Shown here: positions 32,037-38,197 of the stretch, in pieces
How positions within the stretch are numbered: position 1 is the first letter of the stretch
Layout: each line of letters begins with the position of its first letter
IMG/VR virus record: IMGVR_UViG_3300027708_000024
Strand: one strand, 5' to 3'
Length of the DNA: 64,000 nucleotides
DNA from: a virus
The notes under the pieces: generated by a model
The model's input: the letters and a program-made list of their open reading frames with translations, nothing else
Told to the model about the DNA's origin: nothing
The model's database searches: none
Translations under genes and position numbers: made by a program

Positions 32037-33770
32037 TTATACATATCGAACAAATGTTTTTTGAATTCTATTCAATGTCATATCTTGATTTCTTACTGCT
32101 GCCGAATCAAAGGTGAACGTTTGATCTGTACCATTAGTATTAATTACTTTTGAATTATTCAGTGAAATAGGTTGTGGTGCTGCCTGAACATCATTTTGCA
32201 TCGAATTATTTTCATTCATTGCACTTGACATTCTATCACCAAGTGCATTAGACATAGGCATAGGTAAAGGTTTTGATGGTCTACTATCATTATCTTGTAG
32301 ATTGACTCCTGCAGGTAATGGTTTATTTTCTGGTGCGGCAGCAGGTGCAGCGGTCGGAGTTTCTTTTGATGATTCGGCCGTTGGTGGTGCCGCGGGTGTG
32401 GCCTTCTTCTTACCATACTCTAGAGCCTCATCTGCAAGTTTTTTACTTATTCTTTCTTTTCCAAATCCTAAAAATCCTGTGTCTTTCTTAGTGGCAAGAT
32501 AAACACCACCTTCATCAACTTCATAACCTTTACCTTTTAAGTATTCTGCTGCATATGCACTAGTGCGATCTTCAACATCCATTTGTTTCAATGCATCTTT
32601 TGCTTTTTGTGATCCTTTGCCTGCTGCTGCTTTAAGTTCTTTTCTGGTCTCATCTCTTGCGTCCGAAAACTTCATAGGTTCTTGAAATTCAGCACCTAAA
32701 GCAGATTGTGCAGCAGGACGTTTCATAATTTCTGTAGTGGTTGTACCTATATCACCTTCTTTCGCAGCAGTTTCAATTTTTTTCTCAACTTCCGATGTTA
32801 GATATAATGACGATGCTATTGAAGCCGCGGCGATGAAACCTGGAGATGATAATATTCTAGTTAACCAAGATGCCTTATCGATGCTACCAAGAGCATTTTC
32901 AATGGCCTTATTAATCATATCAGCAATATCAAATCCTTTACTTTCTGCTTTTGGTTGAGCAGAAACAGTACCGCCAGTTATTCCTAATAATGCTTCAATA
33001 AATTCTTTGTGACGACGAGCGGCTTCTTCTTTTCTTTCACCTTCAAAATTCTTTTCGAGTTCCATTTGAAGTTTTTTATCCTCATATGATTTTCTCAATA
33101 ACGAAAATAATTTTGCAGCAACATCTGATACGGAATCATTCTTGCGAAGTGGTAATGGTCTGCTACCTGCACCAATGGTAGTGTTTAATGGATTTTTGTT
33201 TTTACCTTTTTTAGTCACTACATCATATGATTTTTTCTCATCTTTTGTATTTTCTTTAGGTTCTTTTTTTTCCATTCCAGTAAAATATTCAAGATCCTTT
33301 TGATCACGACCAAATGTTTTACCATATAGTGCTGCACCCAGGTTACCACCAATAGATTTTGCCATGTTCATAGGATCAAATTTTTCTTTGATTCCTGTGC
33401 CAATTGCTTTTATTTTGTCAGTAACACCACCTTTAAATGATTCACCAATACCTTTACCTTCAACTAGATTTTTTGCAATCAAATCACCAATAGATGTTTT
33501 TCTTATGGCCTCTGCTTTACCGTACTCATGTTCCTTACGTTTTTCTTTTTTATTTTTTGCTTTACCTTTAGAATCTTCTTCAGATTCATATACTTTAGGC
33601 GATTCAGGTAATACATCTTTATCACTTGGTTTACCTAATGTTAGTCTTTCTGTTTTACTTGCTGCACGACCAAGACCACCTTTTGAACCAAGAACATACC
33701 AGTAACCTTTACCACTAAAGGCATTAGGGTCCCATGCAAAAACTATACTATTTAATTTTTTAGTAACCAT
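32037..33770 (-). CDS. Baseplate hub / tape-measure-like protein B (gp29-like position)
   Basis: Downstream of gp26/51; N-terminal half paralogous to 33774-35630. Confidence 0.55.
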   Translation of the reverse strand: MVTKKLNSIVFAWDPNAFSGKGYWYVLGSKGGLGRAASKTERLTLGKPSDKDVLPESPKVYESEEDSKGKAKNKKEKRKEHEYGKAEAIRKTSIGDLIAKNLVEGKGIGESFKGGVTDKIKAIGTGIKEKFDPMNMAKSIGGNLGAALYGKTFGRDQKDLEYFTGMEKKEPKENTKDEKKSYDVVTKKGKNKNPLNTTIGAGSRPLPLRKNDSVSDVAAKLFSLLRKSYEDKKLQMELEKNFEGERKEEAARRHKEFIEALLGITGGTVSAQPKAESKGFDIADMINKAIENALGSIDKASWLTRILSSPGFIAAASIASSLYLTSEVEKKIETAAKEGDIGTTTTEIMKRPAAQSALGAEFQEPMKFSDARDETRKELKAAAGKGSQKAKDALKQMDVEDRTSAYAAEYLKGKGYEVDEGGVYLATKKDTGFLGFGKERISKKLADEALEYGKKKATPAAPPTAESSKETPTAAPAAAPENKPLPAGVNLQDNDSRPSKPLPMPMSNALGDRMSSAMNENNSMQNDVQAAPQPISLNNSKVINTNGTDQTFTFDSAAVRNQDMTLNRIQKTFVRYV

Positions 33771-33773
33771 TTT

Positions 33774-35630
33774 TTAAAATCCAGTTTGTTCTTGTATCAG
33801 TGCGGGGCCAGTAACACCATCTTTTTTCGTTATGTTGTTTGTTACTGTTCCTGGTTTGTTTATCACTGTTAATTGTTTATTTAATATAATTGTATCTGGT
33901 GCTTGATTATTTTGTTTCTTTGCATCTGAGACAGAAACAGAACCAGAATCCACTTTACTTCCCATTTCGTTTGCTTTTGGTGCCGGTGTGGAACTTACTT
34001 GGTCAGAAGAACCAGACGCATGAACCACACCACCTTTTCTATTTACCCGCTTTGCTAGTATCGATTCAAAATCTTTTACTCTAATTTCATATAATTCTGG
34101 ATTATCTTTACCTGGTGCTTTGTATCCAGCATCAATTATTGCTTTTGCAACTGTAATATCTTTTCCTGATTGTACTGCCTTATAAACCGCAGTAGCACCA
34201 CCAGGACCAACATAGTGTGCCATATATTCATAACCAGGAGTAATTGGAACATTATTTTTTTTGAGTATGGCCAGTGTTTCGCCTCTAAGTGATTGATAAA
34301 GTTTTTCTTGTGTATTTTTATCAAATTTTGTAGTTTTAATATCAAGACCTAATTTTTTTACATGGTCATCTAGTGTGGCTTTAACGAATTGATAGGCACC
34401 AACTGCACTCCCACCACCTGACTTTATTCTTGCCTGTTGGAATCTTGAAACTTCTTCTAATGTCATTTCTGTTAATTTTTTTTCAGTTCCTAAATTTGCT
34501 TTTGACCATTCTTCAGGTGTAATATATTTTTGACTTGTTACTTTATTGTTTTTATCTCTTTTTTCTCCAAATGTAATATCATAATTACCACCAGATTCTG
34601 CGGCACCAACACCTGTTGTTGCAGTCGCAACAGCAGCACCAACTGCAACAGTCGCAAGCGCTCTACCTGCTGTTACACCTGCTGCTGGTGGCGCTGCCGG
34701 TGTTGAAGTTTTTCCTGGTTTTACATTTCTAGTAGCACCTTTTGGTTTTGTTCCTTTAGGTGTTGTGGTTTTCTTTGCCGTTTTTCCTTTACCCGAAACT
34801 TTTTCTGTTTTTTTAGAAGTAGGTTTTTCTTTACCTTCAGTTTCTTCTTTAATTTTTTTTACTTCATCTTTTTCTTTTTTTGTTTTATTTGTTAATATAT
34901 CAATAATTTCTTCGTGTCTTTTTTTCTCATCGTCCTCTGCTAATTTTTTATTAGTGTGCATCAATTCATCATGTATTTTTTCTTCCTCAGTGTGACCTTT
35001 TATTAATTCGTAGAGTTTACCAAAAACATCTGCAAGACCATCTCTACCTCTTACATTTTGCACACCTGTTACTAACATATTCACGAATAAAGGATCTCTA
35101 TTTTTTTTACCTTTTTTTGTTTTCTTCATATCGGAGAAATATTCAATCTCCTCTTGAGAACTACCTATCATTCTACCAAGTAATGCTGGCCCCAAAGAAC
35201 TTCCACCAGTGACTTTCTTAGCAATGTTTAGTGGGTTAATTGCCTCTTTAATTCCAGTAATTCTTGCTTTTGTTTTTTCTTTAAATGCAGATTTTATTGC
35301 AGAACCTACTGATTGACCTTGTACTATATTTTTAGCAGCAAGATCAGATATTGATTGTTGTCTTGTTTTTGCTGCTTTTTGATAGGTTAGTTTGATGTTT
35401 GGTGCTTTTGGTTGTTGAGGTGTTTCTGCTGGTATTTCAGCAGGAGTTTCCAACATTGGAATAATTGGTTTAGGTATACCAACAGATTTTGCGAGTTTGG
35501 GATTTAATGACTCAATAGAAGTTTCACCCGAAAGTACCTTTGCAATAGTCTTTGGGTTGAATTTGGTTTTTAATCCTAGTAGATAACGTTCAAATTCTTT
35601 CGTTAATTGTTTTTGTTCTTTAGTTGTCAT
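33774..35630 (-). CDS. Baseplate hub / tape-measure-like protein A with lysozyme-like domain
   Basis: AESGGNY, LTEMTLEEV, SAVGAYQF...TL, YMAHY.GPGGA. Confidence 0.65.
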   Translation of the reverse strand: MTTKEQKQLTKEFERYLLGLKTKFNPKTIAKVLSGETSIESLNPKLAKSVGIPKPIIPMLETPAEIPAETPQQPKAPNIKLTYQKAAKTRQQSISDLAAKNIVQGQSVGSAIKSAFKEKTKARITGIKEAINPLNIAKKVTGGSSLGPALLGRMIGSSQEEIEYFSDMKKTKKGKKNRDPLFVNMLVTGVQNVRGRDGLADVFGKLYELIKGHTEEEKIHDELMHTNKKLAEDDEKKRHEEIIDILTNKTKKEKDEVKKIKEETEGKEKPTSKKTEKVSGKGKTAKKTTTPKGTKPKGATRNVKPGKTSTPAAPPAAGVTAGRALATVAVGAAVATATTGVGAAESGGNYDITFGEKRDKNNKVTSQKYITPEEWSKANLGTEKKLTEMTLEEVSRFQQARIKSGGGSAVGAYQFVKATLDDHVKKLGLDIKTTKFDKNTQEKLYQSLRGETLAILKKNNVPITPGYEYMAHYVGPGGATAVYKAVQSGKDITVAKAIIDAGYKAPGKDNPELYEIRVKDFESILAKRVNRKGGVVHASGSSDQVSSTPAPKANEMGSKVDSGSVSVSDAKKQNNQAPDTIILNKQLTVINKPGTVTNNITKKDGVTGPALIQEQTGF

Positions 35631-35830
35631 CTACGTCTTTCATTGTTCCTTTGTTTTATTTTTTCATTCTCTTCCTCAATGTGTTGAATCAACATAGAAA
35701 CATAAATGTCTCTTTCCCATGGTATCATATTCTCAAGTTCAAACAAACTATATTTGTGATGCTGCATCAATGAAAAGTTTGTTTTATAATAATTTCTTAA
35801 ATTATCATGACAAAAGGTTAGACGAAAAAA
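35627..35830 (-). CDS. gp51: Baseplate hub assembly protein gp51-like, probably made as a -1 frameshift fusion to gp26
   Basis: RLTFCHDNLRNYYKTNFSLMQHHKYSLFELENMIPWERDIYV.ML...EEEN...*; not in the ORF track. Confidence 0.85.
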   Translation of the reverse strand, partial: FFRLTFCHDNLRNYYKTNFSLMQHHKYSLFELENMIPWERDIYVSMLIQHIEEENEKIKQRNNERRR

Positions 35831-36543
35831 CTTTCAAGTCCTTCCACATCAATCTTATGATCAAATCCACATTTGCCACATTTTACATCAATATTCTTAT
35901 TTAATTTTGGAAGATTTGTAAAGAATTCTTCTAACTTTTCAAATTGTGCTTGACTCAATGATTCAACAAATTCAATCAATTCTGATGGGTCTGCTTCTGA
36001 TGCATAGAAAAACTGTTCTCCGTCATAGATGTATTCGATTGATTCTGCAATCACATCAAATGCCAATTGTGTAGTCGATTCACTCTTGCTGGCACGTTTT
36101 AGTAAAGAGAATTCTGGATATTTTAATTTTACAGATAGTTTATCTGTCAGTTGAATCGTATCTTTAATATCATCATTCTTTTCTACTTTGATATCCAAGA
36201 TATTCACTTCAACATCCATCAGATTACCACATTCTTTATTCTCAACAATATTATTGCACTTGTATCTGTTCTCTACAACCTCACCAACTGATCTTGCACG
36301 AAGGTTTAAGAAGTAATATTCAATGTCGATAATAGGAAGTGCCTCAAAATTTATACCATCAGTCAATGTACAATTAATCAACACTTGTTTGATATTATTT
36401 TCGATTGTCTCAGAATCATCAGATTCGAGTGCCATCAATAAATTTCGTTGTTCTTTGACCAAGAATGGTCTAAACTTAATTTTTTTATTCGATAACGGTA
36501 AAGTCAATTCATATGTTGGTGCGTCAATTTTTGGTAATGCCAT
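35818..36543 (-). CDS. gp26: Baseplate hub assembly chaperone gp26
   Basis: MALPKI..PTYEL.LP, FRPFLVKE, DIEY.FL.LRARSVGE, CGKCG, EGLESFF. Confidence 0.9.
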   Translation of the reverse strand: MALPKIDAPTYELTLPLSNKKIKFRPFLVKEQRNLLMALESDDSETIENNIKQVLINCTLTDGINFEALPIIDIEYYFLNLRARSVGEVVENRYKCNNIVENKECGNLMDVEVNILDIKVEKNDDIKDTIQLTDKLSVKLKYPEFSLLKRASKSESTTQLAFDVIAESIEYIYDGEQFFYASEADPSELIEFVESLSQAQFEKLEEFFTNLPKLNKNIDVKCGKCGFDHKIDVEGLESFFV

Positions 36544-36566: not shown

Positions 36567-37154
36567 TTAAATTCCTAAATCCATATTTGGATTAGCAATT
36601 CGTACTCTTTCTTGTGTATTTTTCCAAGATTTGTACACAAAAGTCACAACTAATTTATGATGCCCGTCTGCACTCCAATCTAAATCTAACTGATTGATAG
36701 AAACTGGATATGCTTGTTCTAATAAAACATCATATGATAAAGTATTGGTTAAATCATATTGTCTGATGCTGATATCTGTTGCGTATTCTTCTTTATATTT
36801 AAAATTGTATGTGTTGTTTGGGTTGATATAATTCATCCACCCATCAAAGAATGATTTTACTTGCATATCATCATTAACAATAAAGGTTAAATTCAAGTCA
36901 TTGTATGATACATGATAAGGAAACTTCTCAGTTGGTCCATATATCTTCTGTTCTGTCGTTGCAAATGTTCTTCCGGGAAGTTCTGCATTCTCACATCGTA
37001 AAGATAATACTTGATTTGTGATTTTACTTTCAAATCCCCGATCTAGCAAAGATGATAGCAATTCTGGTCTAATTGGAATATCAACATCAAATTTATTTGG
37101 GCGTGCCAATTCACTCTTAAAACTATCTCTAAATGCCTGTATGTTCCCTGCCAT
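36567..37154 (-). CDS. gp54: Tail tube initiator gp54-like (tube-protein fold)
   Basis: ARPNKF.V, CE.AELPG, FFD.W, Y..EY, AYP.SI, L.VTF.Y. Confidence 0.75.
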   Translation of the reverse strand: MAGNIQAFRDSFKSELARPNKFDVDIPIRPELLSSLLDRGFESKITNQVLSLRCENAELPGRTFATTEQKIYGPTEKFPYHVSYNDLNLTFIVNDDMQVKSFFDGWMNYINPNNTYNFKYKEEYATDISIRQYDLTNTLSYDVLLEQAYPVSINQLDLDWSADGHHKLVVTFVYKSWKNTQERVRIANPNMDLGI

Positions 37155-37762: not shown

Positions 37763-38197
37763 TTAGATTCCTAAGTGTTTTTCTGTAATAATCTTGAATT
37801 CCCAACCACGATCAAGGCAGAATTCTTCTGCTGCTTTCCATTTTGCGGTGTTGATTCCGTAAGTCACGACCTCATTGATATAGTGCTTTGTGACTCTTTT
37901 CTTCTTTTCTGGTGCAAGCGTTTGCCGTTCTGGTTTGACTTCAATTACCATAGTTCTTGTCTTTCCGTCTCTTGTTTTTACTTTAATTACAAAATCAGGG
38001 AAATATCGGTGAGTTCTTCCATCAACGGGAGATACATATGGTATGATTAATTCCTCTGACGCCCAGGACAGAATATCGTTATTGTTATCCAACCAAGTCA
38101 TAACTCGACATTCCCAGGATGAACGGTAGACAATATTATTTGCATCACCTACGTATTTCTGCGGGTTTTTTGGTTTGTATATTCCTCTATAAGCCAT
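37763..38197 (-). CDS. gp4: Head completion nuclease gp4
   Basis: KY.GD...IVYRSSWE, W.SEE..IPY, HRYFPDF, EVKP, N.AKW.AA, F.I.TE. Confidence 0.95.
   Translation of the reverse strand: MAYRGIYKPKNPQKYVGDANNIVYRSSWECRVMTWLDNNNDILSWASEELIIPYVSPVDGRTHRYFPDFVIKVKTRDGKTRTMVIEVKPERQTLAPEKKKRVTKHYINEVVTYGINTAKWKAAEEFCLDRGWEFKIITEKHLGI

Follow-up and report, generated by a model that had tools for sequence, protein, structure and literature searches.

Introduction

A conserved −1 frameshift in tail assembly chaperone genes is credited to Xu, Hendrix and Duda (Mol Cell 2004, as cited in PMC10274946), and Leiman et al. 2010 (PMC3004832) count T4 gp26 and gp51 among the hub assembly chaperones and give gp51 as needed for assembly and absent from the particle. 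The gp51 of cyanophages and marine vibriophages is only about 20% of the T4 length and misses the first ~200 residues, in a report that makes no mention of a frameshift (Sullivan et al. 2010, PMC3037559). Here we analyze a 64-kb stretch of viral DNA (IMG/VR record IMGVR_UViG_3300027708_000024, 64,000 nucleotides, hereafter the window), in which a gp26-like gene on the minus strand ends at a slippery heptamer and is followed, in the −1 frame, by a gp51-type open reading frame (ORF). A first-pass annotation of this DNA had proposed that a −1 frameshift fuses the two into a protein of about 305 residues, following the logic of lambda G/GT, and the proposal is supported by the anatomy of the locus, its conservation, an equivalence to T4 gp51 and the chaperone fold predicted for the gp26 protein.

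The phenomenon itself is probably already known in substance. As described in a citing paper, Vladimirov, Gautam and Davidson (2022) identified poly-T −1 signals in the tail assembly chaperone (TAC) genes of T4-like phages termed TAC-N and, according to PMC10274946, some T4-like phages carry a short plus a long fused gene instead of frameshifting. To judge from these citations, the T4-like chaperones of that study and the window gene belong to the same family (PF12322 plus Gp51_C), in which the short and long forms share their N-terminal domain. Full-text literature searches for a gp26/gp51 frameshift returned no direct description. The present analysis adds codon-level statistics, a presence/absence control, a copy-number test and a structural match.

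Compared with the described systems, the window gene resembles lambda gpG/gpGT in following a tube-fold gene and preceding large putative tail proteins, and in structure models its N-terminal domain superposes on HK97 gp13 (2OB9), YqbN and Rbstp2171 alike. Unlike the lambda and HK97 chaperones, it has no sequence similarity to the Pfam chaperone families, is about twice as long and carries an extra domain of ~140 residues with two Cys pairs. It also differs from T4, which has two divergent genes without the heptamer where the window has one gene and a −1 ORF. The short cyanophage and vibriophage 'gp51' of PMC3037559 is the same ORF as the −1 ORF of the window; it was treated there as a reduced stand-alone gene, whereas we propose that gp26 supplies the missing 200 residues through the shift.

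Anatomy of the gp26-like gene and the −1 ORF

The elements of the predicted two-product gene are as follows.

35818..36543, minus strand: gp26-like ORF, short form (TAC-N), 241 residues, PF12322 T4_baseplate, ending ...EGLESFFV*
35824..35830, minus strand: slippery heptamer T TTT TTC in the X XXY YYZ register, zero-frame codons AGT TTT TTC
35834..35836, minus strand: TGA closing the −1 frame immediately 5' of the heptamer, the 5' limit of the shift stretch
35818..35820, minus strand: TAA, stop of the short form, one codon past the heptamer, the 3' limit of the shift stretch
35627..35833, minus strand: −1 ORF, Gp51_C-type extension with a phrog_634 match, stop TGA 35629-35627
35627..36543, minus strand: predicted long form (TAC-NC), 305 residues, which would require one −1 shift at 35830-35824

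The window gp26 matches PF12322 over residues 9-240 in a Pfam profile search (E 3.8e-61) and is a member of phrog_150, the PHROG gp26 "baseplate hub" family (E 1.6e-66). Reading the minus strand confirms the first-pass annotation in placing the heptamer close to the end of this gene, where the sequence runs ...GGA CTT GAA AGT TTT TTC GTC TAA. Translation likewise bears out that the −1 frame opens after TGA 35836-35834, a position also occupied by TGA or TAG in many relatives, and stays open for 68 codons to TGA 35629-35627, reading KFFRLTFCHDNLRNYYKTNFSLMQHHKYSL...ERRR* (P0001). Any shift is thereby confined to the 13 bases at 35833-35821, heptamer included. As had also been claimed, the −1 frame contains no ATG, GTG or TTG ahead of TTG 35770 and ATG 35767, 21 codons in and past the conserved gp51-like segment, and its TGA stop shares bases with the ATG that starts the next gene, forming an ATGA at 35630-35627.

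The gp51-like character assigned to the second ORF holds as well: its residues 2-66 match phrog_634, the PHROG gp51 family (E 6.5e-30), and it additionally matches C-terminal positions 230-277 of the gp26 profile phrog_150. The predicted long form would comprise gp26 residues 1-240 plus 65 residues (RLTFCHDNL...ERRR), 305 in total, with the junction ...GLESFF/RLTFCHDNL and the junction peptide ...GLESFFRLTFCHDNLR. The slippery sequence of lambda is G GGA AAG, from which the T TTT TTC of the window differs. The heptamer alone is not rare in this AT-rich window, as in-frame NNT TTT TTY occurs seven times in its ~20,700 codons.

Conservation across related loci

We compared the window with 80 related IMG/VR loci, four isolate cyanophages and eight distant T4-like phages (with Pelagibacter, Methylophilales, Sinorhizobium, Vibrio, Pseudomonas and Paraglaciecola hosts, together with two freshwater or coastal Synechococcus phages), 93 loci in all that yield 66 distinct junction sequences. 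The motif NNT TTT TTY in the gp26 frame, with a gp51-type ORF in the −1 frame, is found in 93/93 loci, so that no homologue in this set lacks the heptamer or has a variable frame offset. In each of the 66 distinct junctions the gp26 stop follows the heptamer by 0-3 codons; the heptamer itself reads TTTTTTC in 63 of them and TTTTTTT in the other three. Unlike the heptamer alone, the whole arrangement, shared by 93/93 loci at the level of sequence, is far beyond chance.

Codon usage at the junction is restricted as well. Ahead of the T run the 66 junctions use AGT, AAT, GAT or TCT and never a C-ending synonym, and the Phe-Phe pair is never TTC-first, whereas the adjoining upstream codons for Leu, Gly and Glu vary without such restriction. 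Other Phe-Phe pairs in the related loci are most commonly TTC TTT, with T TTT TTC accounting for only ~8%. Because a TAG stands in the −1 frame directly 5' of the T run in L009, and a zero-frame stop stands directly 3' of the run in HTVC008M and Melnitz, the stretch common to all genomes is the heptamer.

Sequence conservation in the region is highest beyond the shift site, in the gp51-type peptide, whose mean column identity of 73% compares with 44% for a mixed alignment, A1, made up mostly of gp26 sequences. The strongest DNA similarity to cyanophages also lies in the gp51-type ORF, in a match that starts at the heptamer. Within the peptide L12, N19 and F20 are invariant and N14, Y15, Y16 and T18 nearly so. 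The 47 bases that separate the gp26 stop from the first −1 start codon encode the invariant L12, N19 and F20; these residues precede any start codon, so they could be translated only by ribosomes that enter the −1 frame from gp26.

Comparison with T4 and with naturally fused relatives

T4 transcribes genes 26 and 51 in divergent directions, which precludes their being joined by a frameshift. T4 gp51 (249 residues) nevertheless carries a PF12322 domain at residues 1-201 (E 3.9e-52), and its residues 200-244 align to the −1 ORF of the window (E 7e-6), which makes it the in-frame equivalent of the predicted fusion; T4 gp26 matches the same profile with E 8.8e-64. The comparison of gp26 3' ends among T4-like phages that the first-pass annotation had suggested thus gives a clear contrast: the heptamer and the −1 relation occur together at all of the loci described above, and the heptamer is present at the gp26 3' end in 0/6 two-gene phages (T4, RB69, Ac42, avDM1, GAP161 and Makalu_003), all six of which carry gp51 as a full-length separate gene. 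The C-terminal GLKEFF motif is retained in T4 and RB69, coded G TTC TTT G. Since 93/93 loci of the one kind have it and none of the six two-gene phages does, the heptamer is kept only where the extension sits in the −1 frame.

Copy number follows the same division in the whole records searched: T4 has two PF12322 copies, and S-PM2, HTVC008M, phiM19 and Vibrio phage D490 have one each; no second copy is found within the 64-kb window, where the Gp51_C domain follows the PF12322 domain only by way of the −1 shift. An unrooted tree of PF12322 domains resolves three well-separated groups, namely the frameshift type, the gp51 N-terminal domain and the gp26 of Straboviridae. In Cronobacter phage GAP161 (L099 10-2194) a single strand carries gp54 (tube initiator), a full-length gp51 and gp26 one after another, a layout that looks intermediate between the frameshift type and T4.

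One-frame fusions of gp26 and gp51 are very rare. Of more than 7,800 relatives, the 120 with the best scores include no such protein, and a search with the extension returned only 21 singleton proteins; PF28602 (Gp51_C) is recorded on fused relatives. One of these proteins, P0127 (300 residues, 40% identical to the window gp26), reads ...GLGSFFRISMAH..., matching the predicted junction pattern. We examined the DNA of two one-frame fusions. One has a one-base insertion in a Pilon-polished assembly in which neighboring genes are broken. The other, P0134 (297 residues; L095:2200-2225, JGI 3300049043, on a 236-kb contig), has a 2-nt deletion in the T run and reads TCT TTT TGG in place of the TCT TTT TTC GG of others, permanently fusing the two ORFs; it is either a phage with the long form only or an assembly error.

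Predicted fold of the gp26 protein

We modeled the window gp26 and the naturally fused P0127 (mean predicted local distance difference test, pLDDT, 86.9 and 81, respectively) and compared both models structurally with 48,161 PDB chains. The same three proteins occupy ranks 1-3 in both searches: Rbstp2171 (3FGX), YqbN (3KLU) and the HK97 tail assembly chaperone (2OB9), all of which are phage tail assembly chaperones (PMC9603447). For the window gp26 model the scores are Z 8.2 for 3fgx_B (root-mean-square deviation 3.2, 85 aligned residues), Z 7.2 for 3klu_A and Z 6.9 for 2ob9_B, with the first unrelated row at Z 4.0; for P0127 they are Z 7.4 (3FGX), Z 6.9 (2OB9) and Z 6.7 (3KLU). The chaperone matches align 83-86 residues and fall on model residues 1-96. 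In these models the gp26 N-terminal domain folds like solved tail assembly chaperones, and chance is hard to invoke given two concordant searches.

Other methods returned no such relationship. Foldseek against the PDB gave nothing with E <0.001 (2ob9_B at probability 0.54), the Phage_TAC families gave no match for 63 family members (hmmscan, E up to 10), and a PDB sequence search gave no match.

Two further observations concern the window gp26 model. Residues 88-237 of gp26 form a second domain of ~140 residues with two Cys pairs, which canonical tail assembly chaperones do not have and which finds only weak structural matches, in DnaJ/Hsp40 C-terminal and zinc-finger regions (Z 3.3-4.0). The fourth-best match to the window gp26 model is 5ir0_B, the ORF19 protein of a Vibrio cholerae PICI-like (phage-inducible chromosomal island-like) element (Z 5.5, 84 aligned residues), and this satellite protein may, to judge from the model comparison, have a tail-assembly-chaperone-like fold too.

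Proposed recoding mechanism and alternatives

We propose that the window derives from a T4-related phage whose gp26-like gene encodes the tail (hub) assembly chaperone and gives two products. Most ribosomes would halt at TAA 35820-35818 and release the 241-residue short form, while a minority would slip one base back, with two tRNA-Phe on UUU UUC (35830-35824), and continue in the −1 frame, appending the 65-residue Gp51_C domain to give the 305-residue long form. The short and long forms would then correspond to T4 gp26 and gp51, which are separate genes in T4. If the parallel with lambda G/GT holds, the N-terminal chaperone domain common to both forms may hold the tape-measure or hub protein, the extension may recruit another tail part, and both forms would be excluded from the finished virion. 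The occurrence of the slip, its rate and the binding partners of both forms are what we infer here.

One candidate stimulator of the shift lies upstream.

35839..35845, minus strand: weak Shine-Dalgarno-like GGAAGGA, 8 nt 5' of the heptamer, a possible stimulator

Several points weigh against the proposal. The Shine-Dalgarno-like motif upstream is only a partial match in the window, and RNAalifold finds no conserved downstream RNA structure across the 66 junctions in any of five spans (energy 0.0). The fold Z scores of 7-8 are only moderate, and the Gp51_C part of the P0127 model is of low confidence (pLDDT 42-78). Sequence alone cannot tell ribosomal from RNA polymerase slippage. The window has a single downstream hairpin, beginning 15 nt 3' of the heptamer and composed of A and U alone (−4.0 kcal/mol, z −1). 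GGAGG stands 10 nt 5' of the heptamer in 32/66 junctions and is weak as evidence of a stimulator because the same bases encode a conserved Glu-Gly. No terminator is found between gp26 and the −1 ORF, where promoter-like sites are at chance level.

On the evidence of the sequence we nonetheless consider it very likely that recoding at the heptamer produces the long form, and we favor ribosomal over polymerase slippage. The latter, in which RNA polymerase adds one U at the T run, would yield the same 305-residue protein without a ribosomal event, an extra base in the mRNA giving an identical product. It is consistent with the homopolymer of 6-8 T present in every locus (eight in HTVC008M and Melnitz, seven in phiM19) and with the failure of the RNAalifold analysis to find a downstream RNA stimulator, yet we regard it as unlikely. 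The run is only six T and then C in 63/66 junctions, when efficient polymerase slippage usually needs ~9 or more, and selection on run length would prefer TTT TTT T over TTT TTC. The run also always lies in the X XXY YYZ register, a register partly forced by the conserved Phe-Phe, and in the citing literature the poly-T motifs of T4-like phages are termed −1 frameshift signals.

Two further accounts dispense with recoding. The gp26 gene and a small gp51 of 46-47 residues might be independent, the latter starting at TTG 35770 or ATG 35767, possibly by reinitiation once ribosomes have terminated at the gp26 stop, with no fusion made. An in-frame TTG-ATG pair is indeed present and separate small gp51 genes are annotated in public records, yet those annotations disagree on the start (29, 45, 57 or 63 residues, or no gene), no Shine-Dalgarno motif lies 5' of 35770, and neither S-CAM4 nor the window has a start codon ahead of the conserved block. 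Together with the invariant or nearly invariant residues encoded in the 47 bases that follow the gp26 stop, ahead of any start codon, and with the in-frame fusion of the extension domain in T4 gp51, these features make two separate genes very improbable. That a single 305-residue gene has been split by a one-base homopolymer error, in a broken gene or a faulty assembly, could draw on the error-prone nature of homopolymers and on the rare fused versions in databases; we find it scarcely credible when the identical split recurs in 93/93 loci, which come from many samples and include finished isolate genomes, and when, of the two fused versions examined, one is an insertion in an error-prone assembly and the other a 2-nt deletion in the T run.

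Consequences for annotation

If ribosomal recoding at the heptamer is indeed how the long form arises, the main value of the result is a correction of annotation, as the starts given to stand-alone gp51 genes would be arbitrary and a long product of ~300 residues would be missing from protein databases. In the GenBank cyanophage records (L001-L004 and L101-L103) gp51 is annotated with 29, 45, 57 or 63 residues or is absent, and a joined gp26-gp51 coding sequence appears in no isolate phage record examined; one phage record labels gp51 "tape measure protein assembly chaperone". A tblastn search finds the gp51-type ORF in 549 phage records, and the gp26 family comprises more than 7,800 protein clusters in a metagenome database. 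The frameshift would also account for the puzzle, posed in 2010, of a cyanophage gp51 of 20% length, and would bring the T4 group under the near-universal frameshift rule for tail chaperones.

Neighboring genes

The genes that flank the predicted two-product gene are listed below.

36567..37154, minus strand: tail-tube-fold protein, 195 residues, upstream neighbor (PF23849, E 1.5e-7; phrog_45, E 2e-36)
33774..35630, minus strand: 618-residue protein, downstream neighbor, its ATG overlapping the −1 ORF stop; tape-measure-like by position only
32037..33770, minus strand: 577-residue protein, second downstream, a paralogue of the 618-residue protein

The upstream protein is probably gp54/gp48-like, and a tube-fold gene occupies the same upstream position in 54 related loci. 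A complex prediction of this protein with Gp51_C scored 0.00 and was run without controls, which makes it uninformative either way.

Downstream, the 618- and 577-residue proteins share ~170 N-terminal residues (35% identity, E 1e-26) and neither has a Pfam match; residues 381-446 of the former match a PHROG 'virion structural protein'. The first-pass annotation had called these downstream genes tape-measure-like, which stands as far as their position is concerned; the two proteins show no similarity to T4 gp29 (E 0.24). The HTVC008M record places a 'putative tail tape measure' two genes downstream.

Measured from the Gp51_C stop, the ATG of the next long ORF falls between −11 and +7 nt in ~56/66 distinct junctions. 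Translational coupling of the long form to the 618-residue gene, with shifted ribosomes ending at ATGA 35630-35627 and restarting there, is conceivable and in our judgment doubtful: ATGA overlaps are frequent in compact phage genomes, and the spacing, the sole basis for coupling, could reflect tight gene packing. Were coupling to operate, how much of the low-copy 618-residue tail protein is made would depend on how much long chaperone there is.

Farther upstream (37763-38197, minus strand) is the gene of a gp4-type head completion (head closure) protein, which scores as a TnsA-like endonuclease N-terminal domain (PF08722, E 8.8e-25); PF08722 is also recorded on the equivalent gene in related contigs.

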